DNA from: an uncultured Planctomycetales bacterium
GTDB lineage: Bacteria; Omnitrophota; Gorgyraeia; Aquiviventales; Aquiviventaceae
Reading direction: 5' to 3'
NCBI GenBank assembly: GCA_964373175.1
Contig: CAYJTP010000002.1
Coordinates: 40,402 to 104,401 of the forward strand
Length of the DNA stretch: 64,000 bases
Part shown: piece by piece, positions 39,001 through 63,360 of the stretch
Numbering within the stretch: the stretch's first letter is position 1
Layout: every line of letters begins with the position of its first letter
Position numbers and translations under genes: made by a program
Notes under the pieces: generated by a model
The model's database searches: none
The model's input: only the letters and a program-made list of their open reading frames with translations
What the model was told of the DNA's origin: nothing

Positions 39001-42000
39001 CAGCCAAGGCAGTCTCCAGTGTTATCCTCACGCGGTCCTTCCTTCGTGAGGCGGCGCAACGGTATGGCATGCCTCAGGGTGTCTTCTGGAAATCGATGTT
39101 GACATTCAGCCGCAACAAGGAGGTCGGTCTTCCGACTCTGCAGAAACCGGCTTCGCAAAAACTTCTGCCCCCCCACAATGACGGATCCGGCACCCTCTTT
39201 TTTGAGGCGGGCAGCGCGGTGCTGGTCGGTGGGGCTGCGATCGCGGTGCTGATGCTGTCATTGGGGCAACTGTTTGGCCTGACGGTGTTGGCCGGCTTGA
39301 TGGCGTTAGTCGCTTATCTTAGCAGTCTCACGGTGCATCAACGATACTTCGAGGGCCAATCCGAAGATCATCATCACCTGTGGCAGAACTTCTTGGTCAA
39401 CCGACGTTGGTTTGCGGGTGGGATGAGCCTCGTCTCAGCTAATCTGCCTGTGTTTGTGCTCCGGCAATTTGATGCGCCAGTGGAGTGGCTCAATATGTTG
39501 CCCTATGGGCTCGCGGGGATCTTCGTTGGCTACATGCTGTTTAGTCTGCTCCTGATCCCGCTTGTCCAAAGAGCCAAGCAGCTTGGGTTGACCGAGCGGT
39601 TTGCGGTGACGCTGCAAGATAAGCGCGGGATGCATGTCTTTCCGAACATCAAGATCTCTCAGCTTGTTAATCGCATGCTTCAAGAAACCCCATCCCTTGA
39701 GCGCATCGAGGTCGGCTTTGTGGGGTATCAAAAGACGCTTCGTGTTACGCGAGATGCCCCGTTGAAAGAAAATGACCTGACCATCTTGGCAAGCGAACTC
39801 CCCCAGGATACCCCGCAGAATGTCGTGCGATTCACCGTGGTGGGACACAGTCGTCGTAATCTTGAGCGTGTGAAGCGCCTTATCAAAGGTGGCTTCCAGC
39901 ACATCAACGAGCTGAGCCAGCCAAAGCCCTCTCCTGAAGTCCTCGATCCTGAGCGAACCTGGCAGCAACTCGTGGCGCAAGTGGAACACCTCACCCCAGC
40001 GCAGCGGCCTCAATTCATCGACACGCTCTACCAGGAGCTCATCCTGAATCGGCCCAGACACGCTGTGTCGTCCAAGACCCTTGCACTGGCGCGTCGCAAC
40101 GATACGCTCTTGAAGCGACTGCGAGAGACCGACAACCCTGCGCTTTGGACCGTGTACCAAGGCCTCGAGGACCGTTACGTCGAGCGCGTGAGGGCGTTTT
40201 TCACGCAACGGGTGCGGCCGCTGTCAGCGCAGCTTGATGCGTGGCGCGATTGGCCATCTGGGCCTGTGGCACGGCCGATGAAGGACTCGACCGATCCTGA
40301 GGTTCAAGAGATGTATGGGCGGTTGGTTGAGCTCTTCAAGGGTATTCACGAGACGAGCGTCATCCCACTTGACTTGCATCTGGAGCTGGCCAGGCAGGGA
40401 CTCCTCGGCCCTCAATATCCGCAGGAGTTTGGAGGACTGGGATTGTCAGAGCATGCCTGGGTGCGGCTGGCCGCCGAGAGCGCCAGACACAGCTCCGGGG
40501 TGACGGTCTCGCAGATCAACGTGAACACCGGGATTGTGCTTGACATTCTGAAGGATCAACCCGAGGAGATCAAGCGACAGCGGATGCCTCGCATCTTGAG
40601 AGGGAAAGTCTTCGGGGCGTTCCTCCTGAGTGAGAAAGACGCCGGCTCTCACAACGCCAATCTCAAGAGCCACGCCGAAGACGGCAAGGCGACTGGCGAC
40701 AACGTCTTCATCACCAACGGCATTGTGCTGCCGCCGAATTTCAAAGAGCTCTTGGAACTTGAGGAGGAGATTCTCCGCAAGGAACGAGAGGTCTGGCGTG
40801 GTGAGAAACCGGAGCTTGCCGAGTTGAAGGCGTACCTCGGACAAGTCCGCCGGACGTTTGGGGTCTATCGGGCCATGGAACATCTCGGGATCAAAGCGGC
40901 TTGGACGGTGCCGCGTGGGACGCAGCCTGCAGACGAAGGCATTTCTGCCCTGCTCATCATCCTGAAGGAGCCAGGCACGGTTCCCATCCGCCCAGGTGGA
41001 GGGGGCGACCACCTGCAGCTTGCAGAAGGCGTATTGGTGAAGGGTGAGGATACCGTTGGGCAGAAGGGCTCAGGGACAGCCAGCATGTTCTTCAAGGACG
41101 TTCCGGTCCGAACCGTGATCGGACGATTGGGTGAGTTCCTGAAGGCTCTCCAGAGCGGCCGAGGGACCGTGGGCGCCCACGCGCTTGGGCTCTCCGAAGA
41201 TGTGGAGGGTCTGCTCCGAGAAGCGATAGAGGCTGTCCGCACAGGCAAGCAGCAGGGCGTTGAACCGGATGTCCTGGCACAAGCCGAAGCGTTGTTGGAC
41301 GAGCTGCATTGGCAAAACCGTCTGATGCGGCGCTTCATTGAGGAGACGGCCCTGGCGAAGGACCACGGGGAGAATGTTGTGGTTCGGGCGGCATTGGCCA
41401 AGCTGTTTGCCTCGGAGATGGCTACACGGGCCGCAAGCGAGGCCTACCAGATGGCGCACAGTCTGAACGCCGATTCAGCGCTCATCAACCGACTGGACAT
41501 GCGCTTTCGCGATGCGAAGGTGATGGAGATCTACGAGGGCACGAATGAGATTCAACGGCTCTTCGTCATCACGCCATCGCTCTTGGAGAACACAGACCAG
41601 CAATATCAACACATCCTGGCCATGCTGCGGGAAGACCAGAAGCCAATCACATTCTTCCCGAAGGCACTCAAGGGACTCATCCATCTGCGCAACCAACTCC
41701 TCGACGCCTTTCGCCAAGATCTCCAGCATATCCTTCCTACCTGGGTCATGGCGCGCAGCCCTGAGGACACCGCCCCGACAGTGACGGTGAAGCAACTTGC
41801 GCCCTTTGTGTTGCCCGATGTCGAGATGCGCCTCCTGACACTCGTTGAGGCGTACCATGCCTACCGGGCTGCTACGAAAGACGAGGTTCCGCTCTGGGAA
41901 CGTCACCTCCGCTACCTCATCGAAGAGTTTCTCGGTTTCTTCGGAACAACATTCGCGAACCTTCCGCATGACGCGCAAACGCAACTTGAGGACAAGCTCC

Positions 42001-45000: not shown

Positions 45001-48000
45001 ACATGTACTACAACACGGGCCTGACCAGATTTCTGCTCGGCCAGCTTGAGCAGGACTCAGGTCGAGCCAAGCCCGCCCACGAGTACTACGAACGCTCCAT
45101 CGCGGATTTTGACACCTCGATTGCCCTCAAGCCAACCTTGGAAGCGTATTACCATCGGGGCCTGGCGTTCTACAACGTGCAGCAGGAAGAGAACGCCATT
45201 GAGGATTTCAAGCAGGCCCTGGCCTTTGAGGAGGCCTCCAGGCTTCCTCCGGGATCGCAGGCAGAGCTCCTGCGTGCCTTAAGCGCCGCGTACGTGGCTC
45301 ATCGCGACTACCAGGCGGCCCTCCTCTACAGCCACCAGTCGCTTGCCCTCAAGCCAACGTTGGAGGGTTATTACTACCGAGGGCTGGCGTTCTACGGTCT
45401 TGGCCAAGAAAGCGATGCACGGGCTGACGAGGCTGTCGATTCGGTTGAGCAAGACGCGGCGTTGCAGGAGGCCTATCAGTCTTATCTGGATGCTGCCGTG
45501 GATCTTGAGGAGGCGCTGGCCTCGGAGGAATTCTCGTTGTTAAGCCCGCGCACGCAAGCTGAGCTGCATCGAGCCCTTGGCGCGACCTCTTTTGCGCTTG
45601 CCGAGTATGGTGAGGCGATCAAGCAGTATGACGAAGCGCTTCGTCTTGATCCTGACAACGCTGAGCTGTACATCAGACGTGCTGAGAGTTATGCCCTTTC
45701 CGGATCGACGTGGTTTGCCATCCAGGATTTCAAGGAAGCGATTAAGCGAGGCGCAGAGCAAGCGGTCAAGGCCTCCCTCGCTAAACTCCGCAGGCTCGGG
45801 ATCGAGATTATCATCCCGATGATCCTCGCGCCGGTGGTCGGCCTCCTCGCCTGGGCGGCGCACCTGTTTGGGCTTGGTGGCGCGGAGCAGACGGCAGGGT
45901 TTGTGCTCAGCATGGCGATACCGATGAGCGTGCCAATCGCGAACGCGATTCGCGCAAGGTGGATCGATGTGCTTCCCGATCATGTGCGTTTTGGCAAGGG
46001 ACCGATTATTGACCAAGCCATTCGCGCGGCGTTCGCTCATGCGATCCAAAATCCTGAGCAAGATGCCGAAGGCGCCATTGTTGACACTGCACAAGCGCTC
46101 GCGGAGGACTTATTACCACCAGGCGCACAGGACAGCTACACCGCGCTCATCCAGCGCGCGCAACACCTGACAAGCGATCCAAGGAAGCTCGTGGTTCTCC
46201 TGCGACAGCCGCTTCTTGAGGCACAAGAGCTTAAGCTCCAGTTCACAAATGGCCGCGATCAGTCCATGCGCTTTTTTTATCGCTTTGATCTCAAAGAGCT
46301 AATTGGACAGCGGAGGAATGGAGATCGGCATCCCCAGAAGAAGCCGATGGGACCAGCAGCCACGGCCAAAGCGGAGCAAATCGCCGTCGCGCTCTGGGAA
46401 CTTCGCGATGAGGTCAAAGCTGGTTTGCTGGATTTTCCACGGTTTAGAAAGTACTTGGTCGTGCATGAACTGCGCAAACGCAAAGGCCAGCAGTTTCTCT
46501 CTCCTTGGACATTAAGTGTTTATCCCCGGCACTCCCAAGCCGTCCAAGAGGCCTTACGAGAGCTGAAGCGTGCGATCGAGGAGCGCCAGGAGCAAAAACG
46601 CCAAGCGGGGCAACTCGTCTACGACTACGTCCACGCGGAGCGGGCTGCCAAAGTGATTGATGAACAGCTCACGCAACTTGAGCAACAACTCGATCGTGGA
46701 GAAAAGCCACGCTACAAAGTCTCAGAGGAAACATTCTCCGGACACATCGATCTCTCCCGCCAAACGCTGGCCAAGCACCTCACGTGGAATCCGGTGTTTC
46801 GTACAAGGTTTGAGTCTTTGCAAGAGAAGACAAAGGATTTCCGCGATTACCTCTCGAAGGTCCTTCAGCGTCTCGCTTCGGAATATCCCGGCCGCTGGTG
46901 GACAGTCAAGAAAATCCGCCAACACGCCCAGATGACTGAGGTCGCTCACGATAAGACGTATCATGATTTGGAGCAGCTTGCCAAAGATCCGTCCTCAGGT
47001 GTGAAAAAGGAACCCAGAGCGAGCCGCAGTCCCTATAAACCCAATCGCTATCGCTTCGTCTCTCAAGGCACAGTCGTCCTTGCGATCCTCCTGCCGCTCC
47101 TCGGCGGCCTGGCCTATCCTCTGCACCTGATTGCGGGGGCAGGCGATGCGTTGCTCAGTGCGGTGTTGCTTGGTGGATTTGCTGGTTTTCTCGGTGTGAC
47201 TGTCTCACTCAAGCAACTGTCGGCGATTTTGCGAGACACCCTGAGAGAAGGATCAGACAAGCTCGTCACCCTCTACTGGTTAGCGAAAACTGAACTGGCC
47301 CTGGGCCATCTCGAGGAAGCCTATACCCGGTCCGCCTCCGGATTGGCCCAGGCCGTTGTCGCCCAGCAAACACTCAAGCTCACTGGTCGGGAACGCGAGG
47401 GTGAGCTGGCAGAGCTGGACAGACAGATCGCTGATCTGGTCGATCTCCACGCCAAGGTCCTCTTGAAACGAAGACACCACGACGATGTGGATCGCGCGAT
47501 CGCCATCTTATCCCAGGCGGTGAAGGACCACCCCGAGGCCTTCTTCCTCCGGATCACCCTCGCGAAGGCCTACGAAACCAAGACCAACACCCCAGGTCTC
47601 CACGAGAGCGACCGCCGCTTTGCCTTGAAGCAAGCGGAGGCGACAATCCGCAAGGCCGTTAAGGACCTCTCGACGTCCCCACAGTATTCCAGGATCGCTG
47701 AATCTTACGCGAACCTCCCCGCCTGGCAGGACCGAATTGATGAGGCGATTCACGTGCTGAGTGCCGGTGGGCGCCATGTGAAACGGCAGTTTCGAGGAAA
47801 TCGGTTGATCCAGCAATTGTTCTCTCACCTCGTCAGGCTTCGGGATGGCACACGGCGTTCGGGTAAGGCCGAGACAATCCTCAAGCTTGCCGTCGGATTC
47901 CTCAGCCTCAGACTCCTTGATTTGACCGTGCAAGCCCTCAGCCACGGTGCCTCTAAGAACATGGTATCTGATACCATTTCCCAGGCGACTCTCTTCAGGC

Positions 48001-51000
48001 TTGACACCCCTGACATCAACCTGACGCTTCTTGGGCTTCTCCTCACCGGGGCCGTGGTCCTCTGGTCGCTCTATCATTGGCTTGCCACGCGCTTCCATGC
48101 GCCGCCAGAAGCCGCTCCATTGAGTCGCTGGAGCGTCCCCGCCTCTGATCGATTTGCCCTCCTTAGTGGTGTGGTCAGCTTGCCGATGATGGCCACATTG
48201 CTGCCCTCCAAAGATCCTGACAGCAAGTTGGCTCGGGATGCAGAGGATTTACGTGAACAAGGCTGGACGGCTGAGCTCGTTCGGAGCGATCTGACCACGC
48301 AGCAGCTTCAGCACACCATGGACGCCATCTTGGATGGATTAGTGTTTTCCCCACATGATCGGCCGCTCGGCCTTCCGGCCTGGCTTGGTGAACAAGGGAT
48401 CGCCGACTCCTCGAGCCGCTTACCTCGAGCATGGGTCGAGATGGTCATTGGCGAGTTGCTCTGGAATTGGCAGAGGCAGCCTGCCAGTAGTCCGTCCTCA
48501 GGCGTCGCCAGACCTCTCTTGGTCGCCTACCGACGAGGCCACATCGTGAGCGAAGAGACCATCGAGCTCATCGCGCGAAACCTTGTGGAGGAGATCCCGA
48601 ACATCCGCGAGGCGGTGAGGCCTACTGAGGCTCAGCCTGTGACGGAACGCGGCCAATGGCTTCAGCGCATGATCGCCATCGTGGTGGGGATGTTGGATGG
48701 GGAGGTGGTCATTCGATCGCATGGCAAAAAGTCTCACTTCTTCCTGCCGCAAGGAGGCGTGGGCAGTTACACCCAGCTGCTCGAGGCGAGCACGTCCTTT
48801 GACTCCTATGTGACCAAGGGCACCTCCATCTCCATCAGAATCCCGACCGCCGCGTGGTCGGCAGATGCATCGGGGCGAGCGCTCAGACAGGGCAAGCGGC
48901 TCATGAGGAAGCGACGGTTTGCCGAGGCTGCCGCGGTCTTTGCCAACGTCCTGAACCGAACGCCAACGCACCTGGGTGCACTCCACTGGTTGGCGAAAGC
49001 CGAACTCATGCAAGGGCATCTTATAGCGGCTTTGGCGCGGCCGCTGTACGGAATCGCCCAGGCCATGATGAGCCGCTCGACCCTGCACACAGAAGATCAT
49101 GTGCACGAGCTTGCGAAGCTGGATGCCCAGACTGCTGATCTGGTGGATACCTACGCTCGTGTGCTCATGGCGCGACGGCATCCTGGCGAGGTGGATCGCG
49201 CTATCGCCGTCTTAACGGCGGCGGTCCAGGAGCAGCCGCACGCGTTCTTCCTGCGGATTACCCTGGCCAAGGCCTACGAAGCCAAAGCCGTCATCCCCGA
49301 CCTCCATGAAAACGAGCGACGCTTTGCCTTGAAGCAAGCCGTCGCCATCACCCAGCAAGCGCTTGCGGACTTCTCCGCGCATCCGAAAGTCCGCCTGATC
49401 GCAGCGTACGACGCCGGGCTGTTGTCCCGCCAGGGCCGCATCGAGGAGGCCATCCGCGTGCTCAGCGATGATGAGGGACGCCACGTGAAGCGGGAGTTCC
49501 ACGAGGATCAAGTCATCCGTCGGCTCTTGGACAAACTGGCGGCAAGCCGCTTGGCTGTTGGGGTGACACCGTGGGCGCTCTCGCAAGCCCCGGCGGAGCT
49601 CTTCTGGTCGGTGGTAGCACTCGGGGCGATCGGGCGCGTGGTGTTCTCGCTGCGGCGGTGGCTCGCGGAACGCTTCCACCGCGCACCGCAACCCGATACC
49701 GAGGCGCAGAAGTTGCTTGAGGAGGCGCGATCACGACATCAGAAGAGAGACTTTGCCGGCGCCGCCCACGGGTATCGGGAGTTTGGTCATCACCTCAAAG
49801 TGCGGGACGGTCTGGCGAAGACGGAACTTGAACGCGGTCATGACTTGGATGCGATCGCGCTCGCCAGAGAGACCCTCGCGTTGGAGCAGCGACTTCTCGA
49901 GACGGAGCACTATCTCGAGCGGGTGTTAGCGGCTGAGCAGATGCCGTTCACCCTGGAGGTCTTGATCGATGCGCTCATCGCGCAGAGGAACCATGCCGAA
50001 GCGCTCACGGTCGCTTCCAACGGCATTCGCGATTTTCCGGACAACCCGCGTCTTCGCGTGAAGCAGGTGAAGGTGTACTACAGTGCCAACGACTACGAGC
50101 TGGGAATCGCCATCGCGCGCGAGGCCCTTCAAGACCCCACGTTCGAGGAGAATCCGCATCTTCACGAAGTGCTCGCGGCTGGGCTGCGGCACCTCAAGCG
50201 GGCGAAGGAAGCCAAGCACGTCATGAGTTTTGATGGCCGCACCCTCAAACCGTGGCTGCGTGGCCATAAATCCGTCTATCCCACCTTTGCTGCCATCCTG
50301 GGCGCCGATGGCCACCCGTGGGAGGGGATTGACCAGTTGATGATCAATCGGCAGGTCATCAAGCGCGAGCTTCGCGACCACCCGGCTGTCTACCCGACCC
50401 TGGCAACCCTGTGGGGTCGCGTGGGTCAGTTTGACACGGGGATTGCGCTGCTGAGCCCGGATGGTGGCCGCACAGTCCAACCAAAACTCAGCGACCATCC
50501 GGCTTCGTGGACCGCACTCGTGGAGTTACTGGAGCATAGCGGGCGGCACGCTGACGCCCTGACCCTTGCGCGCGAAGCCAAGAAGAAGTTTCCAAGAAAT
50601 CCCGTTGTCCGTCGCACGCTGCAGCACATCGAGGCCTCCTTTTACCGCCCGGGTGGTCGGGGAAGACCAGACCTCCCGATCATCAGCGCCTGGCTGGTTG
50701 TCCTAGGGCTTGGATGGTTCCTGGACCGATTCCTGGATGTGGGGACCTCATTCTCAGAAGCTGCGGTGTTTGGAGATCTCTTCTGGCCAGCGCTGGTTCT
50801 CCTCGGGGTAGTCGCAGCGGCGTACCAGCATCGAGCGCTCAGTCCTCGAACCGCTCGTCGGCTCCGTGAGGCCATCGCCTATTTCAATCAGCAAATCAGA
50901 AACAAAGTCTTACGACTAAGACAACTCACCGAAGCGGATGTTGCCGGAAAGGCCGATGTGAGCCATACGACCATCTATTGGGCCCTCAAGATCACTGACC

Positions 51001-54000
51001 CGTCGCAACAAGACATCAAGCGAGGGCTCATCCGACTGTTGAAGTCGGAACGCGCGACCATACCTCCATCCTGGCCGGGATCCCCTGAGACCCGCAGGGA
51101 GCAACTGGTCGGGCAGATCCTGAGCGCCATCCAGGATCTCACGCGACTTGCCGGTGAAGGAAAGATTCAGCGTTACTCGACGGCTGAACTCGTGGCAGCT
51201 CATGTCAGGAAGATGACCGGTGATCAGACAATTTCCGACCATGAAGTCCGGCAATTGATCGCGCATCGCAAGAACCTCCAAGATGCCATGGGGGTCTTGC
51301 GGAAGAGCACGGAGTCCTTCCACTTCCAGCCAAAGCCGCGTCCGAAGAAGACACCCGGATCGAATCCGCTCAGGGTATTCGCCGCCCCGCTGCTCGTGGC
51401 CATCGGCCTGTGGGTCGGTGGGCTCGAAGGGCACTTGCTGGCCGGGCTGGGCGTTGTGCTCAGCGTGATCGGGTTTGGCGGGCTGCTGCTGGCAATGCGA
51501 CCGGTCAGACAAGAAACAGAATCAGAACTCAAGCCAGGCGAGATTGCGGGAGGCGTCCAGCAGGAGCTTGGCGCGGTCCAAGCATCCAGCCCATCCAAGA
51601 ATCAAGGGGACCTGGTCAGTCTTGACCAACATCGCCCACAGCGGCAGGGGTGGCGAGGTATGCTTGGCATCCAGCAGTTTTCCAGTCACCTTCGCCAAGA
51701 CCGCGTCAATCTCGGCGTCTTTCCCTGGGACGAGGCCACGCAGCGGCAGTTCGCCCAGTCGTTCAGCACGCAACGCGGGCCACAACGAGATGGGGATCAC
51801 CGAGTAGGGAGCGCCCGTATCGATGATGGCCAGATGGTCATCACTCCACCCAACAGACTGTCTGAACTGGACTCGACCCAAGAGTCGAGACAGGAAGAGT
51901 CGACGACGACGGCGGCTGGCCTCGAGGTCCCGCACGCGCTGGACCTCAAGGGCGACGCGCATATACGTGGATTCCGGCCTCGAGGAACAAATGCGGGATA
52001 TGCGGCCAGTCAAGCTGCTGGCGAGCTTTCGCGAGCACCCGGATTAGATGCGGACCAACAGCCAACACTCGCCGGTGCGCAAAGGCGACCCATTGATTCG
52101 GGTAGCGTGTGGCCAATTCGGCATAGTGCGCAAAGGCCCAATCGTACTCCCGCTGAAGAGCCTCTGGAAAGAGCGCTGTTTGAACCGACATCAGTTTCAC
52201 CGACCTCCACCTCGACTATAACCGACGATGAAGAGGCTGTCAAGCCAGACCGCTTCTCCGACCTTATCGGTGGGCTCGAAGGGCACTTGCTGGCAGGGCT
52301 GGGGTTTGTGCTGAGCCTCGTCGGGTTTGGCGGACTGCTGGCGATGCGGAAGATTGGCGGAAAGGAACAGCTAACAGGCAAGGCAAGAAGCGCGAATAGG
52401 CAGAAGACAAGCCGTCAAGGAATGCCGAGTTTTTCTTCCACAACTTTCAAGCGGGCGTCGAAAGTCTTCATCTCGGATCTGATCGCACGGATTTCAACAA
52501 GGATCAGGTCGGCGTCTTTCCGAAGGTTGCCGACGTCTTTCGACAAATTATCCACCTTTGTGCGAAGGTCAACGAGCCCTTCAGCGACGAGGCGGATCTC
52601 ATGGCGAAGCGACTCGATGAGCGCGCCGACTTCGGTCACCGTGAAGGCGTCTTTGGAAGGCCGTTTGGATGGAGGCATGAACGCCATTCTACGCAGGACA
52701 GGAGCACCAGTCAAGGAACATCGGGATGACTCGGTTGCGCCAGGTGGCCTCCTGACCCCGATGGGGGGATTCGTGCTCATAGGGATCGGGCTCCTGGCCA
52801 AGCATCTGATGGGGCTTGCGCTCTTCGGGACGGTGGCGGAAGTGGTGGGCGTTGGGCTGACCGCGCTGTGGGCAGGTTGGAATACGACTCTTCATTCAGC
52901 GTCTCAGGTACTGTCGTGGAGGGTGAGAGCGCTACCGAAAGATCTCATAGCCATCACTGCGCAGCACGAGGACTTTTCCACGCAACCACCGCTCAGGTCT
53001 GATCTTCAACAAGTTCCTGACAGCCTGGGTGATCGTTTCAGCCATGGGTGGGTGGATGCGGATCACGACAATTCCGGACAGCTTCGAGGGCAGGAAATTC
53101 AGGAAGTCCCGGTCACGCGTGAACAGGATCGCGCCTTCCCGTTCGGCAAGCGCAGCGATGGTCGCGTCGGTCGCACGGGGGGACGGACGGATGACGTGAT
53201 GCCCCACCCGGCGCAGGAAGGCTTCCGTCTGTCCAGGGATATGTTCGTCAAGCAGCACACGCACAGCGAGCTACGCCTTGAAGGCCACGAATTCCCGGTG
53301 CTTGAATTGCTCAGCGGCGTACTGCAGGGCGGCGCGAATGTGCTGCGGGGTCAGCTGGGGAAAATATTTCTTGGACGTGATCTCGGTGCTCGAAACCCCG
53401 GCTCCAAGCAGCTCAAGGACATCCGAAACCAGGATGCGAGTCCGCCCAAAGCAGGGTTGGCCATGACAGATGGCTGGGTCCACGTCGATCAGCTTCTCAA
53501 GGGAGTTTTTCATCGCCACCTTCACACTCCTCCTAAGAAGGATAGCATCCTCGCTCCTCGTCGTCAAGGCACGTCTTCTGGAGTACTCAACGTGGGGTTC
53601 AGCGCAGAGACCCTTGCCGGGCGGTGGCCGGAGGGTTCGCCCATCTGGATCGCGCCGGTGGTGGGGCTGCTCGGGTGGGAGTTCCTCGTGGCGGGGTTGA
53701 AGATGGGCGGCCTAGAGGGGGTGGCGCTCGCGGGCTTTGGATTGGCACTTGGCCTCTTCGGGTTTGGCGGGCTGCTGCTGGCGACGCAACGCGGTGGGAG
53801 AGTAAAGGGGAGGGAAGCACGGCTTAGAAGCTACCGGGTTCCCAAAGAGGTGGCCGAGCGTTATGTCACTCCGGAGATCCTGACACTCTTCGAAGTGGCT
53901 GAACAACTTGGACTCAAGATCAAAGCAACCGGCGGGACCGCGCGGGATTTTGCCGTGTCTGTCATGACACAACACCCGCTTCGACTCCCTCGCATCACCA

Positions 54001-57000
54001 ATTTTGATGTGGCGATCCCACTGGCTCCCCATCAGAAGCCCTCAGAATTGTTCAACGAATCAGCCTACCAGAGGTTTGCGCAAGCCTTCGAACAGGCCCT
54101 TCGAGCCCGTGGCGTGCTCAAGCCAAACCAAAAGATGCCTGAGGTGGATTTCATGCCAGGCGTGTATGTGGAAGGAGCCGGCTACATTTACCAGATTAAC
54201 ATGAACATCCGACCCACAAAGGAGCGGCCTGAGATTGGCGAGGCATTTTCGATCAGCAAACTGGCGGTCAAGAAAGAAGGCGACGGGTTTGTGATTGAAG
54301 ATCACGTGGGCGCTATGGCCGACATCAAGGCTAAGCGCCTTCGGATTATCGCCACACCCGGACGGTTACTCACCGAAGGGATGCTGGGGAAGATGTTGGG
54401 TCGATGGGCGGATTACCGGAAGCTGGGATTTGACTTTGACCGGCCATCGAGGCAGCTGATCCAGCAGTCGGTGAACGCGCTCCGGCATACCACACCAGCA
54501 GACCAAAGCACCTTTGTGAGCTTGCTCCTCGACAACAGCCAAACGCAGCAGGATCTTCTCTTCGTGATTGACCAGTATCGATTAGACGAGGTCTTGGGGG
54601 TACGGCGAGCCTCCCTGGCAAGACGATTCAAACGGCATGAGCGCGCGTCGACGGCTTCCTCCGCGGCTCCTGATCCAGTCAAAGCCTTCGTCACACAGTA
54701 CCTGCAAGCCAACTACGGCCAGTTCAACCTGTGGGCCAACACCGAGGCCGTTGTGGATGCGGTGGTGAACCGCCTGTATCCGTCGCGGGATCCAGCAGCG
54801 ATTGAGCAAGCGCGAGAGCAGTCGGGGATTGGCGTTGCGGGAAGTGACTTTACGAGGCGCTATGATGACTATCAACACGATCAGAAACTGGAGCTGACCT
54901 ATGAGCTCATTCGAGAATTTCTTACAGGCGGAGTGGTCGTGGATGTGGGGGCTGGGAAGAATCTGTTGGCGCGGAAGCTGGCTGAAGAAATCCCAGGGAT
55001 CAAGGTGATCGGGACGGATGTCTTGGATTGGCATGAGGAATCGTCCGATCCGAGAGTCGAGTATCGAAAACAACTCACCCCTGAGCGAGTCCCTGTTGAG
55101 GATGAGAGCGCCGACGTCGTGATACTCCAAAGCGTCCTCCACCACATCACGGATGAGCATCTTGACAGTCTCTTGAAGGAGGTCCACCGAATCCTGAAGC
55201 CGGGTGGGAAGGTGCTCGTGTTAGAGAACACCTTCCCGGAGACACCCGAGGTGCTCCAGACCGTGAGGGACCAGGAAGGCTTGTCGGAGTTGAGCAAAGC
55301 CTTCCTGAGCTTAAACCCAGCGCAACAGCAAGCCTTCTTCGAATTTATGGATTGGTATGGCAACGTCTTTGTGAAGCAGCAGTCTGACATGCCCTTGTCC
55401 TTCAATTACAAGTCGATCGAAGCCTGGAAAGCACTGTTTGACCAGCATGGATTGGTGACGCGCACGGATCGGTTCATCGGCTTTACCCCGGGCCGCTTCC
55501 ACTGGCTGGCCACCGGCCTCTTCGTGTTTGAAAAAGTGTCCAGCGAGCCTCCTATCTCATCCATCCTGAAGCGCCATCCGTACTTGAATGAAACGCAACT
55601 GAAGCGTTTCGCGCAAGGCGAAGCCGGGTTTGCGGTCACCCGGAGACTGAGATGGACTTTGGAGAAGCTGGATCAGTTTCTGACCGGTTTGGAGCAGGTG
55701 AGCGGGATCCCCTTGGACAAGGCAGTACAACTCGTTGTGGAACCCGCTGAGATGTATCTGATCAAGCAGGTTCGCGATGAGCGGGCAGGCCAATATCTGA
55801 TCAACCTTGGCAATTCCATGTATCCTCCAGATGTTGTCATCCAAGCGGCTGGGTACGTAGGGACTCATGAAGGCCATCACTACCTTGACGAGCTTAATAT
55901 GGTTGACGCTTCTGGTCTTGCAGAAATGGGGGGTTCTGGTGGCACGACTCGCCGAGGCTCAATCTTGGAGCAGTTTGATCGGATGGTAAGCGACGCGGCT
56001 CGAATGAATCCGATGATGCGTGGGCTAGCAGGTCGTCCAGATCTATTGTGGATGGTGGAAGAGCTCAGCGTTGATAGTGATACGGCTAACACACTCGGTG
56101 CTCGCGTCGTCAAGAACTATCTCCCCCTTGCGGAAGCTCGATTGGCTTATCAGGAACGTCAAGCAGAGAGTCCTCGCGGAGTTGTTCCTGGTCTTGCGGA
56201 GCTCGTCCGGTATGAAACCGTCGCACGGGAATATGCATGGATCGAAGGGGTCGATGGGGCATCCCGCGAACGTCTCAAGCGCGTGGAGGAGGGGTACGCC
56301 AAGTTAGCCAAGAAGGCCAAAGACTACTCGGAGGCCAAATACAAGTTCTTCCTCGGTGTGTTCACAAGCATCTACCGGATGACGAGTTTGCTCAAACCAC
56401 GTGGTGGGCGGTGGCCGAAGCGGCAGCCGTGGTATGACCGCCTGGAAGCGCGCTACGGGTGGTTCGTGGGACAGGTGCTGGCGCCAGCGCTCAGAGAGTC
56501 CGGATTCTTTGTCGGTGGCGGGAGCTTGCTACTCAGTTGGGCCTTTGGGATTCCGCTTGAGCTGAGGCCTCCAACCGTGGCACTGCTAGCTGGATTCCAA
56601 ATCCTGTGGCACCTCCGCCATCTACCGGGTGCCGAAGGCAAGACCTTGGCTCAGAAACTCGCCGCGGCGTTCTCCGCTGAGAAACTCCTCATCACCGGCC
56701 TGACGGTCGCGCTTCCCAGCCTCCTGCTGCTAGATCCCAGCAGCCCATTCCATCCGATCGGCGTCGGCTTCGTGGCACTCATCCTCGGCGTTGCGTCCTT
56801 ACCTCACGCCTTCATCAACCTCGTCACACCTATCCAAGATGGTCGTGTGGTAGGTGTCCGCGACGCGGGATCTGATACCGTCGGCAGGCAGGCGGATGGG
56901 TCTGGTCGCACTTCGCAGGACTCACCGTTGACCATCGTGGAGATGGTGTACGCTGACCTAACCAACACAGGAGGCTTGGAAAGCTACTTGCGGGAGCTTC

Positions 57001-60000
57001 ATCGCGAGCTCCTCACCCACCCAGGGATTCGAATCCATGCGCTGTATCCGGTGCAGGCCGCGCCAAGGACGTTTGAGGAACGCGCTGACAATGGGAGCAC
57101 GCTCGTTCATCACCAGTTTGTGAGACAACGTCCTTGGGTGAAGGTTTCGTGGCGCTCACCGTGGGGCTCCCTTCAGCAGAGTGCGGAGATCTTCCGCAAC
57201 CTCCGTCAGATCATTCGGCAAGAGCAGGTTGGCGTCCTGCATCTCCATACGCCGTTCTATTTCCCCGCGCATCTGGCGTTTTGGTTGGCGGGCGTGTGGT
57301 ATCGCATCCCCCGTGTGGTGACCTCGCACCAGACACACGCAGGGGGCTCGAGATGGTTCTTGCGCACCATCCACCAGCTTGGTGCCAAGGTGCTTCCTCT
57401 TGGCGCGGCGGAAGTCACCGGGGTGAGCGACGCGGCGGCCCGCAGCCTGAAGCGCAAGGCCTCTATCATCGGCAGCGGGATTGACACGCACTTCTTCACC
57501 CCGCAACACGGCCGGGGCGATGCGTTTCGGCAGCGTGAGGGGCTCTCAGCAGAGGTGCCACTGATCGTTTATCCGGCTCGGATCGATCCTGAAAAGGGCC
57601 AGCGGGATCTTTTGGATCTGGCCGAGGCGCTTCGGGCCAACGGCCTCAAGGCTCAGGTCGTCATGATGGGACCAGTCGCTGATCCCTCCTACGTTCAGCT
57701 GCTCAGCGACGACATCATCGCGCGGGACCTGTCAGAGATCGTCCACATCTTGCCCGCTGGGACTCCTGAAGAGGTGCGCGACGGCTACGCGGCTGCCACC
57801 GCGGTGGTGTTTCCTACCTATTCGGAGGCGTTGGGCCTTGTGGCGTTGGAAGCCAGCGCGATGGAAAAACCGGTTGTGGCCTACGCGACAGAAGGCGCGC
57901 GGGAAGCGGTGAAGGATGGCGAGACCGGCTACCTGGTCCCGACCGGCGATGTCGAGGCGCTTAGCCGTCACGTGATTCAACTCTTACAGGATGAGCCACT
58001 TCGTCAACAGGTGGGTCGTGCGGGTCGGGCTTTTGTGGAAGCCCGCTATTCGCTTGAGCAGTTAGCCAATCGACATCTTGCGCTGTACCGACGTGTGGCC
58101 GGCCGCGACGCGGACGCGGTATCTGATACCGTTACTGAACTGACGTCGCAAGCGATTCGCGCGGGTCTTGAGCGGCTCATTCGGGAAGGGAAGGGACTAC
58201 TTGTTGCCAAACCTCAGAAGGGCCCAATTACACAGTGCTACCTGGACTGGGGAGGGACGTTGAGCAATCTGACGCCGGAAGAACGGCGCGCGGCGCTTGA
58301 GCTGTTTCGCGCGCGCGGGATTGAGGTCAACATTCTCACCACGGCCAGCCCCGAGGCGATCGCCAGGCAGCTTGAAGCGGAAGGCAACCTGCCCTTCTTG
58401 CGCTCCATCATTCACGCCATGGGCAGCTCCTCAGGGAAGGTCCACGTCGCCCGCTATCAGGACTCAACCGGCCAAGACACTCCCATCGTCCTGGTCCACT
58501 CGCCTACGACCAAGGCCGGCTACTTGAATTCGCTCCCTGGACAGGGCCGCGTCCTGTTTGTCGATGATCAGGCGACGCATTTTTACATCACCTCAGGACA
58601 GGTCATCCGCGTCGGCGTGATCGGCAAGGGCGTCACGAGGTTAAATGACCTGCTCGGCGAGGACACGGAGTTGGCGGAGTATTACCTGGCGTCCCTCAGC
58701 GACCGTTCCTCCCTTGATGAGTTGCTCACCGCGGTATCTGATGCCGTATTGAGACCAGAGACCAGCCCGCCCCCCCGGCCCGACGCCGGCGACAGCCGGG
58801 GCGGGCGGCGGATGCTTTCGGCGGGCCGGGGAGACCAGCCCGCCCCGGCGGATGCTTTCGGCGGGCCGGGGAGACCAGAGACTCGAGTGGGCATGACTGA
58901 CAACGAGGTCATGAACGGATCGGTGAGTTACTCCGACAATCGCTTGCACAGGGCTCTTGAGCGGCGGGCCGACAAGCTCGCGCGGCTCTTTGGCAATCTC
59001 GAGTACCAGCTCATCGAAGACCTCAACCCAATCACGATGGATCATCGGCTGCCGCGCGAGTTTGCGCGGGTGAAGCTGCCGCTCTTGGCGATGCTCGTGG
59101 CCGACCACCTCATACCGAGCCACCGGACGTCACCGAAAGAGACGCTGCGTGGAGAACTGCGCGAATTCATGATGCCCGATGGGGTGACGCTGCGCGGCCA
59201 GTGGTTCAAAGTTGAAGGAGATGGCCCTGCCCCCGTGGTCGTGTTCATCCCGCCCTGGGGGATGTCGAGCAGCCAGTACGAGTCGCTCGTCGACACCTAT
59301 CGCCAAGAGGCCAACGTCCATGTGCTGCTGCTCAACCTGCGCGGGCAGGGCTTGAGTGAGGGGGAACTCACGACGCATGGCGCGGAGGACGTCGATGACG
59401 TGCAGCGCGTGCTGCAGATGCTGCGCGCCAGCCAGGAAGTCAGCACCCAGCCGATCCTCCTCCATGGCACGTCGCTTGGCGCGCTCGTCTCTCTGCGGCT
59501 TAAGACCCTGTTTCCTGAGCTCATCCAAGGCGTCTTGGCTGAATCGTGCCCGCCCATCCAGGCGCACGCCATTCAGCGGTTCTTGCAAACACAACTGCAA
59601 GACCGCTACGGCAAGGTCTTGCAACAGCTCTATCCCGAGGTCGCACGCCAGGATCCTGATTTCTCGAACTTGGCGAGCGAGACCGTACCGCTCCTTGAGC
59701 GGGTGTTAAGCCATCGCCTCGGGCGCTCCATTCACCTCATGCGGCCCATCGATGACCTCAAGACGGCGCAGGGGCCGATCACCTTCCTGTACGGTCGCGG
59801 TGATCACGTGATCCCGGCGAATGAGCAGTTGGACATAGCTCGTGCGGTGAAAGAGCGCCTCGATGCTGGTGAGGGCATCCAACTCTATCGGCTCGACGGC
59901 GGCCACCTGGCGATGAGCAACGATCCGCAGTACGCCACGGTGATCTCATCCGTTGTCCGTGAGGTCATGGTTCAGGCTTCGTCCAATGTCTTCGAGCAGA

Positions 60001-63000
60001 GGAGCTGGGGAAGGTTGCGCAGCGTGAGGAGGACCTTGCTCGGGGCCGGCATGATCCTCACAGGGATCGGCAAGTTGATGGGACACCGACCGCTTCTCGC
60101 AGTCGGGTTATCGCTCGCTAGTCTTGCCGTCAGTCTGCTCGCGTTGAAGGTCTTCCCGCAGACCTACCGGAGTATTGAACAAGCGGTCACGCGGATCAGT
60201 CAGGCAAAGCCTCTGCCGACCATTGTGCTCATGGGCAGTTGGCTCATCGCGCTGGTGTCGTTGATGGCCGTGTGGAGCGTGGGGCTGTTGATTGGAGGGC
60301 GGATTCTTGAATGGGTGACTGCCGGCTTCTCTCTGCAGGGAATCGACACGTCGTTCTTGAGTCCGGTGCCGTGGGTCGCGTTGCTTGCGGGCGGGGTGTT
60401 CCTGGTTAAGGCGACCCTCCTGTTTGGCTCAGACAATGGGGTGCCATTCGAGCGCTCATCCCAGGTGCGCCCAGCCTTGAGGACGAACCTACTCTTCTAC
60501 GGAACGCTCCTGTTGGCCAATCTCCTGATGGCGTTGGGGTTGTCGTCCCATATCGGCACGCTGATCTTCCTCTATCAAAAACCCATGCCGTTACACCACG
60601 GGGATGGGGTCATCGCGCTGGCTGGCATGGCGGCGCTGTGGGGGATCGTGACTGGCAGAACCGCCTCGGTGCTGTGGCGAGAGGTGGGCCAGCGGCTTTC
60701 GGCGTGGTGGGCGCGCCACCGCCACTTCTTCGTGCCGTTTGGCCTGATGGCGACGATGAACGGGCAGACGACTCCGTCCTACTACGAGGCGGTGCAGCGA
60801 GTCTTGCCACCTCACATGGCTGGTCGTCGTAAGGTAGCCCACTATATCGTGGAGCGGTTTGGGAGCCGATGGGACGAAGCGCTCTCCATGATGGGTGGCC
60901 ATCTCCTTAACCGCACCCGTTGGCCCTTCATCGACCGAGCGCTCAAGGCTGGGCTTTCGATCACGGCTATTGCAGATTTGCTGCATTACTCCCACACCGT
61001 GGATGAGCAGAAGACGGGGGTCAAGACATTGCTAACGATAGAAGATTTCCCTCCCGAGTTTCAGGAGCTCGTCCTGACCCATAGTCAAAGCCGCCGAGGA
61101 TTTCATCGCGGGTCGATCAATTTACTGTGGACGCTCTATGAGGTTCTGAGACCTACTGGAAGTCCTGCGCCATCGGCCATCGAGTTTCCCGCATGGCTTA
61201 AGTTTGGATCGAGTGCGTCCCAGGCTGAGCGAGCGCTTCTCGAAACTCTTGAACGACGCGGCACGGCGGTGACTGATGAAGAACTCGTGCAAACGGCACG
61301 GAAGATTTTTGAGCTTCAAAAAGCCCAACGTCGTCGCTTGATTCCTCTCTATGCGTCTGACGGTGGTCCCTTGAGTGAACAAGACGTTCCAGTCCAGTTC
61401 CTCTCACCCGACTCCCCCCTCAAGTTTACCGTCCGGCAACGTGTGTTCTACGAGTTTCCTTCGCAGCCAACGAGCCATCCATCGCTTGATGCCTGGTTGA
61501 CCGATGAGTCACTGTATCAGTCGTTACGGCCGTTTCTCGCCAATCAACCTGAGGTATCATTCCCGCTGCTGTTGGCGAGTGTTGCCTTTGAGCCTGAGCG
61601 CGCCGATCGCATCGACACTGTTGAAGAGCGGTTCCTGCAAGTGTGGTTGCATCTGAGCAACCAGCTCCCAACAACTGTTCGGCAGCGGTTGCAAGGTCTC
61701 GAATCAACCATGGAGCAGGCATTTCGCCTCTTTGCTGCCCAACAGGGATTTGTACGTGTCAGAGCACCAACTGGAAGTCGATGGTTCAGCCACACCGCTC
61801 ATCTGTTGCACCGCAACACGATTGAGCGGTTGAACAGCCTGTACCGCGACGCAGGGTATCGGTTGGTGTTTGAGGATAGCCAGTTCTGGTGGGAACGAAA
61901 CCTCGCGACGGTGCCGAAGACAAACGGCTCTGTTTCACCCTTTGGAGTTGGCTTGGGCCAGCTCTTCACCCCTGAGGTCTGGCGGGATCTTGCCCAGCGG
62001 CTTTCGGCGTGGTGGGCGCGCGGGGTCTTAGGCGTGAACGGGAAGGTTAATATTCACGAGAAAAAGGGTACGAAAAAGGGTACCGGTTCTCATTTCTCGA
62101 CGCCGGACACGACCCCCATTACCTTCGGAGCCGATGCGGGTTTTGGGGAGCTGCTGAGGCGGCTTGGACAGGTGCCTCGAGCCTTCCAACAGTTGTTGCG
62201 CCGCGCCGTGCTGCCCATCACCACGCTCCAACCCGGCCCCTCGGTACCTGGTACCGGAGCCACAAGACCCAAGGCTCAAGGGAACGGATCAATCCTGCGC
62301 AGGCTCAACGAGCGGTTGCCGAGGAGCTACTGGTTCAATGGGGTGGCGATCGGGACCTTAGGCTTAGCCGCCTATTGGCTCGGGCTGATTCCGCACAGCG
62401 GGGAAAACTGGTTGCAAGTCCTCGCCAAAACTGTCGGCGGCTTCGTGGTCTTCTGGACGGTATCTGATACGCTCGCCAAGCGCAGCACCAGCGAGCCCAT
62501 CACCGGCAAGGGGCTGCGCGGTGCCGCCAGCGCCGGGTTGATTAACGGCCTGTACACGCTGGGCTTCTTTGCGCTCATCGCGCTGATCCCTGAGCCGATC
62601 GGTGCGCCGGCGCGTGTGTTCTTGGTGACGTTCCTCTTGATTGCGTCACGAAATTGGATTTATTCGAAGCTGTTCCACAGCCACGCCAAGGAGGCGCAGG
62701 ATGCGTGGCTAGTCAACCGGAGAAAAGAGGCCTACTGGTTTAGCCGTCCCGCCTCCATTCTGAAGAATACGATCATCCAGGCGCTCCTGCCGCTTCCGGT
62801 GCGGGGGCCGGTCGAGGCGATCATGACCCAGTGGTTCCAGCAGTACTACGCCTGGGCGTTCCATGTGCGCCGTCCATCACTGATCAGCCGGCCGCAGCGG
62901 GTTTCGGCGATCCAGCGGATGGTCTTTCCGTGGCATCGGGGTCCGGCGCTGATGGTCTACGGCCTGGTCGCGCCGGTGGTAAACGCTTGGGGAGGTGTGC

Positions 63001-63113: not shown

Positions 63114-63169
63114 GGGGTCAGACCCTGTGCGGGAATTTTGTCAGTTTTCGTGCGAAGGGTCTGACCCTG
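63114..63169. repeat. REP-like palindromic element ~50 nt after the giant ORF stop
   Basis: The arms gggtcagaccc (63115-63125) and gggtctgaccc (63158-63168) form a stem of about 12 bp with a ~30-nt loop. No U-tract follows. It is the same family as 36423-36480, in the opposite orientation. Confidence 0.75.
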
Positions 63170-63253
63170 AGCACGCTCACGGCAGGGGAACAGGGAAAGA
63201 GGGGACTGTCAAGAGTCTTCCAGGGCTCTCTTAGTACAAGATAAAAAAAGCAC

Positions 63254-63282
63254 TTGACAAGCTTTTTGAAAGATATTATTAT
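63254..63282 (+). promoter_or_regulatory. Sigma70-like promoter for the downstream gene
   Basis: TTGACA (63254-63259), a 17-nt spacer, then TATTAT (63277-63282), within an AT-rich patch. Confidence 0.55.
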
Positions 63283-63360
63283 ATGGCATCCTTTTCCTAT
63301 GTCTCGCTTGTGTCTAGGCTAACCACGGTGAGAGCTGATGGCTGTAAGAGGCCTGAAGTG

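Follow-up and report, generated by a model that had tools for sequence, protein, structure and literature searches.

How can a set of promoter-bearing genes persist on one strand of a sequence whose other strand is a single uninterrupted reading frame? The question is raised by the 64,000-nt stretch of DNA analysed here (positions 40,402 to 104,401 of contig CAYJTP010000002.1, assembly GCA_964373175.1, from an uncultured Planctomycetales bacterium placed by GTDB in the Omnitrophota), to which we refer as the window. It holds a giant plus-strand open reading frame (ORF) and, inside that ORF, an island (51500-53620) of five minus-strand genes arranged in three cassettes: A (DUF5678 and a retropepsin-like protein), B (a coiled-coil protein) and C (DUF433 and a DUF5615/PIN-like protein). 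An earlier note on this DNA had proposed that the minus genes are real, each cassette with a promoter of its own, and that the plus frame stays open either by selection or through very recent capture of the island. Our analysis supports the first point, and on the second the relatives of the cassettes decide for selection. We consider it quite probable that the island represents a clade of selfish cassettes of the toxin-antitoxin (TA, or addiction) type, specialised for antisense life inside giant ORFs, probably those of Omnitrophota, with selection keeping the host frame open.

Anatomy of the island

The host frame and the genes nested in it are the following.

21-63065, plus strand: giant host ORF, 21,014 amino acids (aa) or codons; a frame without any stop that runs straight through the island.
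51522-51962, minus strand: retropepsin-like gene, 146 aa, with a DTGAP motif; codon-aligned with the giant frame; no TTA, CTA or TCA codon.
51946-52200, minus strand: DUF5678 gene, 84 aa, with GGAGG ahead of its GTG start; not in phase with the giant frame.
52415-52678, minus strand: small coiled-coil ('heptad') gene, 87 aa; third phase relative to the giant frame.
52932-53264, minus strand: DUF5615/PIN-like putative toxin gene, 110 aa, GTG start; codon-aligned with the giant frame.
53271-53513, minus strand: DUF433 (COG2442) putative antitoxin gene, 80 aa; codon-aligned with the giant frame.

The plus frame had been described as stop-free across the island, and this holds: 21-63065 is one ORF with no stop, while the remaining five frames of the window contain 305-921 stops each. 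The coordinates of the minus ORFs, the 6 nt between the DUF433 stop and the DUF5615 GTG start, the 17-nt overlap between the DUF5678 and retropepsin-like genes and the use of all three relative phases (three genes codon-aligned with the plus frame, the other two in the two remaining phases) were likewise reproduced from coordinates and sequence. The DUF433 start (ATG at 53513) agrees with the starts of its homologs.

When all six frames were scanned for codon usage with the giant ORF as training set, the island stood out as the sole part of the 63 kb where another frame is clearly and consistently ahead; elsewhere in the ORF three isolated windows deviate, by at most 1.5 units. The plus-strand translation of the island has no Pfam match, its sole match being a Logan fragment of identical sequence. 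Outside the island the giant ORF is a chain of recognizable modules set apart by ~47 transmembrane (TM)-like segments. Its sense-strand Pfam domains include CofD, a full-length cytidylate kinase, NAGPA, ROK, HAD, several methyltransferases, HATPase, response regulators, HTH repeats, acyl-CoA dehydrogenase, transaldolase, TPR, GT4/GT1 and alpha/beta hydrolase. Class-1 giants of Omnitrophota are recognised by a minimum length of 10,000 aa together with numerous distinct Pfam families and TM helices; the window ORF has 21,014 aa, well over 20 distinct families and 47 TM-like segments.

Family assignment of the minus-strand proteins

The earlier note had read three of the minus ORFs as members of the DUF433, DUF5615/PIN and DUF5678 families, and all three score above the respective Pfam cut-offs. 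DUF433 (PF04255) reaches 66.7 bits against a cut-off of 23.6 over the whole profile (1-56 of 56), and DUF5615 (PF18480, the COG4634 group) 51.0 bits against 23.8 over profile positions 1-106 of 110; the DUF5615 protein also matches PIN (24.8 bits against 23.6), and LLDE and TRDRDF motifs, candidates for the acidic residues of a PIN-like active site, are conserved in the four closest members. DUF5678 (PF18929) scores 26.2 bits against 23.2, and the partner genes in public contigs carry recorded Pfam hits to the same family. An exact look-up of the DUF5615 protein among called genes gave no match, most likely because gene callers skip nested genes. The DUF433/DUF5615 pair shows the layout of a type II TA system, i.e. 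two adjacent small genes, a DNA-binding partner upstream of a nuclease, and one promoter. Judged by its sequence, cassette C is a putative TA pair of the VapBC-type PIN/COG2442 kind.

For the retropepsin-like protein the earlier assignment held with respect to the motif and the fold, and failed with respect to a curated profile above cut-off. The catalytic D-T/S-G-A motif is present as D48-T-G-A-P, invariant in 22 retropepsin-like sequences. An AlphaFold2 model (predicted local distance difference test score, pLDDT, 73; predicted template-modelling score, pTM, 0.70) was compared with the PDB by Foldseek, where the top matches are the proteases of feline immunodeficiency virus (FIV), equine infectious anaemia virus (EIAV) and human T-lymphotropic virus 1 (HTLV-1), with pepsin-like aspartic proteases (plasmepsin and histo-aspartic protease, HAP) interspersed lower. 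The matches to retroviral proteases have a probability of 1.00, a target-normalised template-modelling score of 0.54-0.63 and, in the case of the best ones, a root-mean-square deviation of 2.7-3.5 Å. On this model the 146-aa protein has the predicted fold of a retropepsin.

The heptad protein of cassette B is small, basic and coiled-coil; it belongs to no family and gives weak coiled-coil matches in Pfam and NCBIfam. Searches of the five minus-strand proteins against NCBIfam and PADLOC returned nothing useful, including no retropepsin hit in NCBIfam.

Nested relatives and free-living controls

For the retropepsin-like protein 24 close homologs (54-74% identity) were found, the great majority likewise of 146 aa. 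Thirteen loci were fetched through the retropepsin alignment and, together with a further one (L003), make up a set of 14 with GC content from 0.45 to 0.68. Each of the 14 has an open codon-aligned antisense frame across the cassette and onward to the contig end or for 2.3-14.7 kb, while the other two antisense frames close within at most 650 nt. The same antisense frame is open in the window and in locus L002, and in every locus a DUF5678 gene stands before the retropepsin gene. An independent retrieval, made via the DUF5615 protein, yielded its three closest homologs (59-67% identity, all of 110 aa) on contigs of 686-947 nt (L022-L024); in each of these the codon-aligned antisense frame is open from end to end and the other two are closed. 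The arrangement is thus nested and open in 17 out of 17 other contigs. The DUF433/DUF5615 pairing is conserved in L005, L008, L015 and L022-L024. As members of the nested retropepsin clade share between 70% and as little as 42% of their amino acids, the nested arrangement must be old.

Free-living relatives of the DUF5678-retropepsin pair provide the control. They stand among ordinary same-strand genes in DNA of GC 0.53 and 0.30, carry 5-15 TTA, CTA or TCA codons, have all three antisense frames closed, and fall outside the nested clade. The relative of GC 0.53 is within the GC range of the nested loci.

One nested locus (L002/L004) comes from an Omnitrophota metagenome-assembled genome (MAG; JACPAY010000003.1), where the public annotation shows genes of 18,166 aa and 6,471 aa flanking the cassette. 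The opposite-strand frame is open for 11.9 kb through the cassette, so that the annotated split is a gene-caller artefact. Judged by eye, the host frame on either side is protein-like with a methyltransferase-like motif. As a side observation on this locus (7465-11887), the 18,166-aa ORF ends at 11577 and the next long frame is open already from 11887, the two overlapping by 308 nt in another frame; in the annotation the downstream giant gene begins only at 7465, ~4 kb too late, and the reason seems to be that the caller preferred the antisense cassette genes. Two '+' genes of 125 aa and 124 aa called at 10529-11323 look like shadows.

Selection on the two strands

Which of the two overlapping frames is constrained was read from the differences between relatives. 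Among 13 retropepsin genes the pairwise differences by codon position of the cassette frame are 0.32/0.26/0.55, and the same pattern is seen for DUF433 (0.19/0.13/0.51) and DUF5615 (0.30/0.18/0.54). Of the codons that differ between retropepsin genes, 42% are synonymous if read in the cassette frame and 8.5% if read in the giant frame, and the corresponding amino-acid identities are 58% and 34%; across the retropepsin and TA genes taken together the synonymous share is 42-58% in the minus frame vs 8-11% in the plus frame. This comparison of sequences shows purifying selection on the predicted cassette proteins and a giant-frame peptide that is not conserved across the cassettes. Because of the codon-position pattern, the minus-strand proteins appear to be conserved products, neither shadows nor fossils. 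The locus differs in this respect from an antisense dual-coding pair with both frames under purifying selection at the protein level, since only the cassette frame is constrained in this way, the constraint on the giant frame being to stay stop-free and not to keep its sequence.

The avoidance of host-frame stops is itself pronounced. Across the 13 full-length nested retropepsin genes ~310 codons specify Leu and 100 specify Ser, and not one of them is TTA, CTA or TCA. Given host codon usage, the probability of such an absence is 0.005-0.2 per gene, and for the seven loci with flanks long enough to estimate host usage the joint value, counting loci of shared ancestry as independent, is 10^-9.5. 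The genes lying out of phase with their hosts (n = 14: copies of DUF5678, the heptad gene and a second TA lineage) have no host-frame stop either, with a joint probability, given their proteins and under the same assumption, of 10^-13.6. Third positions differ at 51-55% of sites despite shared ancestry, and the promoters and spacers of the island are also stop-free in the giant frame. The codon-aligned phase is probably prevalent because it can be made stop-free by synonymous choice alone, Leu and Ser having other codons.

Openness of the giant frame versus chance

A synonymous shuffle of the minus genes, the check that the earlier note had proposed, was run and turned out to be informative only in part. 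For the three codon-aligned genes the giant frame stays open with a probability of 1.0 by construction, because there is no TTA, CTA or TCA codon to shuffle; the heptad gene was uninformative as well. The shuffle was replaced by resampling from host codon usage and by an empirical antisense null. Resampling gave probabilities of no plus-frame stop of 0.31, 0.26, 0.06, 0.10 and 0.88 for the five genes; for the DUF5678 gene the value under synonymous resampling is 0.06-0.10.

The empirical null was taken from the rest of the giant ORF, where antisense stops occur once per 73, 23 and 30 codons in the three phases, and the longest open antisense runs are 329, 171 and 259 codons; the island needs ~707. 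For the lengths and phases of the five genes the empirical probabilities of being open are 0.33, 0.22, 0.13, 0.011 and 0.055, with a product of ~6e-6.

Promoters and cassette boundaries

Each cassette had been assigned a promoter with 17-nt spacing between the hexamers, and all three were found in place as sigma70-like sites.

52215-52243, minus strand: cassette A promoter, TTGACA-N17-TATAGT, 11/12 matches.
52686-52714, minus strand: cassette B promoter, TTGACT-N17-TAGAAT.
53539-53567, minus strand: cassette C promoter, TTGACG-N17-(TG)TATCCT.

Four promoter-like sites (these three and one on the plus strand at 53521-53548) occur in 51300-53900, vs 0.4 in shuffles. The whole 64 kb contains four sites with at least 10 of 12 matches, two of them in the island directly upstream of minus ORFs and two in the intergenic region past the giant stop. 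The latter region holds a divergent pair at 63254-63305, just downstream of the giant ORF (plus strand, TTGACA-N17-TATTAT, 11/12; minus strand, GAGACA-N16-TATAAT, 10/12).

The hexamers of cassette A (TTGACA-N17-TATAGT) are kept in 10 of 13 loci with a variable spacer sequence, which is the signature expected of a working promoter. Related TA cassettes in L022 and L024 have TTGACA-N18-TATACT promoters. The ATG of cassette B lies only 7 nt past the -10 element, suggesting a leaderless transcript, and L008 shows an equal layout. Starts, stops and Shine-Dalgarno sequences of the cassette genes are conserved between loci. Between loci, similarity at the DNA and protein level extends from the -35 hexamer to the stop codon, and the host-frame flanks are unrelated. 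Intrinsic terminators for the cassettes were not detected in excess of chance.

Flanking repeats and cassette shuffling

All cassettes examined lie between direct repeats of local host sequence, and all spacings are multiples of 3. In the window the relevant features are the following.

51415-51500, plus strand: host linker repeat, copy 1; encodes the TM helix GGLEGHLLAGLGVVLSVIGFGGLLLAMR.
52267-52349, plus strand: host linker repeat, copy 2; 89% identical to copy 1 and 852 nt (3 x 284) from it.
52743-52870, plus strand: two TM-like helices of the giant protein, between cassettes B and C.
53704-53790, plus strand: host linker repeat, copy 3; 66% identical to copy 1, with an identical 25-nt core; 1437 nt (3 x 479) after copy 2.

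Copies 1 and 2 differ at eight sites, five at third positions of the plus frame and three being conservative first-position changes. Another TM helix (53643-53700) precedes copy 3. The earlier note had placed TM helices between the cassettes, and TM-like segments are indeed present in the gaps, at 51369-51500, 52266-52340, 52743-52870 and 53643-53770. TM helices beside cassettes are common in other loci (L023 and L024, for example, have TM-like flanks), with none obvious in L004 or L005, and we claim no enrichment. Repeat length varies, being 74-86 nt in the window (89% identity), 39-52 nt in L004, L003 and L008, and 261 nt in L005, where the copies are 99% identical.

A longer array was observed in L005 (MAG CAYJRJ010000003.1), where the order is repeat, BrnT/BrnA-like pair, repeat, DUF5678/retropepsin, repeat, TA, repeat, TA, repeat. 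Its region 8685-12228 contains four TA-type cassettes (two of them DUF433/DUF5615), all antisense and alternating with copies of a single host repeat, and the host frame is open over the whole locus, which measures at least 12.2 kb. The BrnT match (33.9 bits) falls slightly short of its cut-off of 34.5, and the CopG antitoxin match has 32.1 bits. DUF433/DUF5615 pairs stand beside a retropepsin cassette in L005 (twice), L008, L013 and L015; L006 has two retropepsin cassettes, and L015 and L008 contain heptad-like genes. Content and order are thus shuffled between loci. Cassette A is always a pair and is found in the company of TA modules. No Pfam match was obtained on the cassette strand of L008 between 10440 and 13330.

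Several further observations concern the retropepsin cassette. A DUF6722 gene follows it on the same strand in L003 (7491-7703) and L006 (1333-1581) and may be another member of the nested repertoire. L007 (MAG CAZJOE010000053.1, GC 0.45) contains at 3671-3958 a retropepsin-like gene of 95 aa with an in-frame internal deletion (residues ~57-108 missing), in a host frame that is open across the entire 8.2-kb contig; this copy may be a decaying cassette turning into a linker of the giant protein. In a library protein of 1,902 aa (P0027) a 36-residue stretch of the retropepsin profile (positions 54-89) is matched in 24 separate places.

An integron gene-cassette array was considered and rejected: the repeats are locus-specific host coding sequence with no homology between loci and are not attC-like. 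No integrase domain was detected in the scanned part of the giant ORF (21-60020).

Proposed mechanism and points against it

We propose that the cassettes would leave and enter host genes by homologous recombination of the Campbell type, acting between linker repeats that are in frame, in which case the host frame and the antisense orientation would be preserved automatically. Only those cassette copies that leave the host frame uninterrupted would survive, and the giant protein would therefore read through the cassettes as non-conserved stretches of ~90-260 aa between TM helices. The host would tolerate such unconserved stretches at these positions.

A wider interpretation is more tentative. 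The giant genes of Omnitrophota-type bacteria could be the habitat of a guild of mobile TA-type cassettes with stop-free antisense strands, moving at linker repeats, and giant ORFs could grow partly by accreting cassettes, sense or antisense, whose decayed copies would become 'dark' domain-less loops. If this conjecture is true, the purging of host-frame stops would be the first evolutionary proof that these enormous ORFs need end-to-end translation.

A number of points weigh against the reading of the island as a selfish, selected antisense resident. For the expression of the cassettes, as for translation of the giant ORF over its full length, the evidence consists of signatures of selection. 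No empty (cassette-less) site was found, and the case for mobility is built on the non-homologous flanks and the flanking repeats. The only flanking plus-strand module queried (53820-55319) has no relatives in three collections (genome, metagenome and viral contigs). The retrieved loci are mostly from groundwater metagenomes and share ancestry, which means that the joint probabilities given above overstate independence. The retropepsin-like protein stays below the cut-off with both curated profiles (RVP, 16.3 bits against 20.7; Asp_protease_2, 13.8 against 24.3), and the Foldseek E-values of its retroviral-protease matches are modest (~5e-3). To call cassette A, a protease with a small partner, TA-like is a guess from association. 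For the heptad gene, resampling leaves the giant frame open with a probability of 0.87-0.88, and its two homologs (in L015 and L008, each inside an open host frame) are weak.

Alternative explanations

Among the alternatives, one leaves the anatomy as described and refines the reason for selection. The frame could be kept open for uninterrupted transit of ribosomes along the 63-kb mRNA, on which production of the downstream modules would depend (avoiding, for example, Rho-type polarity or the mRNA decay that follows premature termination), with the loops encoded by the island having no role as protein. We regard this as a possibility worth keeping in mind, if a doubtful one. It agrees with the facts that the giant-frame peptide is at the shadow level of identity (34%), that it has no Pfam hit and that openness alone is preserved; nothing was counted against it, and TM helices beside the cassettes fit either explanation.

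It is rather unlikely that the cassettes have been domesticated, so that the TA modules and antisense promoters serve the giant gene, either by guarding a repeat-rich 63-kb gene against deletion or by tuning its expression through head-on antisense transcription. Such a service would fit the persistence of the arrangement across the whole clade, the location of the arrays between recombination-prone repeats and the strong, conserved promoters, and TA modules are generally known to stabilise the cassette arrays of chromosomal integrons. On the other hand, cassette positions and flanks vary between genomes, as they do for selfish elements, and the copy in L007 is internally deleted.

Selection for an open host frame would not be needed at all if an ordinary minus-strand island had been engulfed or inserted lately, stop-free by luck, and its genes were heading for decay. 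For single cassettes luck is not extravagant (chance would leave the frame open with a probability of ~0.07 at the TA pair, 0.055 at the heptad gene and 1.4e-3 at cassette A), and a GC content of 0.58-0.61 favours open codon-aligned antisense frames. Recent capture is nevertheless very improbable in view of the 17 other contigs, all nested and open at 42-70% protein identity and GC 0.45-0.68, the purifying selection on the cassette proteins, the conserved promoters and the antisense stops of the free-living relatives.

Two giant genes flanking an ordinary island could also have been joined by a sequencing or assembly error, or by a chimera at the repeated TM-coding segments. The 74-86 nt repeats around cassette A could mislead an assembler, and the public gene caller did split the L002 host ORF at the cassette. 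An independent Logan assembly of run ERR4904392 is, however, 100% identical over 51576-55278, into the downstream methyltransferase module, and covers cassette A in part and B and C; its contig begins at 51576, so that the left junction (51415-51576) is without this independent support. Moreover, the frame is stop-free over 63 kb, no exact 31-mer is common to the repeat copies, the 17 other contigs show the same continuity, and the L002 split is a caller artefact in a frame open for 11.9 kb. An assembly error is scarcely credible against this background.

Finally, that a plus-frame domain is the real conserved unit and the minus-strand 'families' are antisense shadows called on short contigs can practically be dismissed: codon-aligned antisense frames of conserved genes are themselves conserved, and tblastn of giant-frame peptides between loci does give 27-50% identity, but variation is highest at position 3 of the minus frame, the synonymous share favours that frame, curated Pfam families match it and none the plus frame, starts, stops, Shine-Dalgarno sequences and promoters are conserved, and the free-living homologs occur without any host ORF.

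Other repeats in the giant ORF

Direct repeats also occur elsewhere in the giant ORF. The pair 38453-38528 / 39182-39257 is 86% identical and TM-coding, with a spacing of 729 nt, and the pair 60664-60716 / 61969-62021 is 81% identical with a spacing of 1305 nt, both spacings being multiples of 3. Both pairs bracket sense-coded modules with the same geometry as around the antisense cassettes, and the same accretion mechanism may act on sense-oriented inserts behind these repeats. Other duplications are a 33-nt perfect one (58806-58838 / 58846-58878, 40 nt apart), a 269-nt pair repeated at the protein level within TPR-like modules (47403-47671 / 49107-49375, 71% identical), and four HTH-containing repeats, ~200-400 nt apart, at 37188-38013.

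A 58-nt element with inverted termini, GGGTCAGACCC-N31-GGGTCTGACCC, occurs once within the giant ORF (36428-36485), and the frame reads through it as ..AQGQTPSTKFGDFPAQGLTPS.. Another copy (63115-63172, 72% identical) lies 50 nt past the giant stop codon, half-sites are present at 27812 and 35570, and 11-mer matches number 14 vs 1.7 expected. It looks like a palindromic element of the REP (repetitive extragenic palindromic) or MITE (miniature inverted-repeat transposable element) kind that is likewise tolerated in frame. An Rfam scan of the window found no RNA family.

Significance and comparison with known systems

The question whether ORFs of 10,000-150,000 codons in Omnitrophota are translated as single units gains from this evolutionary evidence for selected continuity: throughout a clade, at GC contents down to 0.45, the synonymous sites of nested genes are purged of host-frame stops. 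Old families with their own promoters inside another gene would also constitute a defined natural system for dual-coding constraints and head-on transcription. For selfish cassettes it would mean a new lifestyle, residence in a gene by read-through and not by splicing, which suggests a route for the growth of giant genes.

Prodigal-type callers are not known to report a gene enclosed entirely within another. The giants of the more recent of the two giant-gene papers were called with Pyrodigal (Nielsen & Lui 2026, 10.64898/2026.06.07.730766), and neither that paper nor the other (West-Roberts et al. 2023, 10.1101/2023.11.21.568195) mentions opposite-strand genes inside giant ORFs. In the loci analysed, callers overlooked the nested genes or divided the giant ORF by mistake, and nested cassettes are therefore likely missing from current annotations. 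Full-text literature searches returned no description of such a nested arrangement. We know of no system in which conserved, promoter-bearing genes lie antisense in a host ORF that is kept open across a clade.

Each of the parts has a known counterpart. Giant multi-enzyme, membrane-anchored proteins with many TM helices have been described in Omnitrophota in two bioRxiv preprints (West-Roberts et al. 2023; Nielsen & Lui 2026, as 'class 1'). The window ORF resembles them in exceeding 10,000 aa and in its many unrelated Pfam domains (among them methyltransferase, HATPase, HAD, GT1, response regulator and ROK) and dozens of TM helices. The window contains no marker genes; one nested relative is found in an Omnitrophota MAG.

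The PIN/COG2442 family is a predicted TA family, of which vapBC10 has been studied experimentally in Synechocystis (PMC2701414, PMC3834315), and COG4634 is a PIN-like group (PMC5499597). Cassette C is similar to these pairs in that DUF433 is followed by DUF5615 after 6 nt, under one promoter and with small products (80 and 110 aa). The known pairs, however, reside in intergenic or accessory DNA, whereas this one lies wholly inside the frame of another gene, which has shaped its codon choice.

Chromosomal (super)integrons contain arrays of TA cassettes with their own promoters, alternating with attC repeats. The nested arrays share with them small promoter-bearing cassettes in the same orientation, alternation with repeats and an order shuffled between genomes. 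Unlike in integrons, the repeats of the nested cassettes are locus-specific host coding sequence, and the host ORF reads through the whole array.

Rickettsia palindromic elements are reportedly (Ogata et al., in 2000) selfish DNA inserted in frame and translated within host genes. As with these elements and with inteins, the cassettes reside inside a protein gene without destroying it, in frame and stop-free, the extra peptide being tolerated. The difference is that the former are short and non-coding, or are protein-spliced in the case of inteins, while the inserts in the window are 0.4-0.8 kb long with genes and promoters on the other strand.

Long antisense overlaps are known in bacteria, for example olg1/olg2 in Pseudomonas aeruginosa and nog1, asa and laoB in E. 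coli O157:H7. There, as here, ORFs on opposite strands share DNA, and the codon-aligned antisense phase is preferred. Those cases represent a young orphan ORF within an old conserved gene; in the window, old and widespread promoter-bearing families occupy a mother frame that is constrained only to stay open, and they recur in this setting across a clade. Overall, TA pairs, giant Omnitrophota genes and antisense overlaps are all known as such; their combination in one locus is what we know from no other system.

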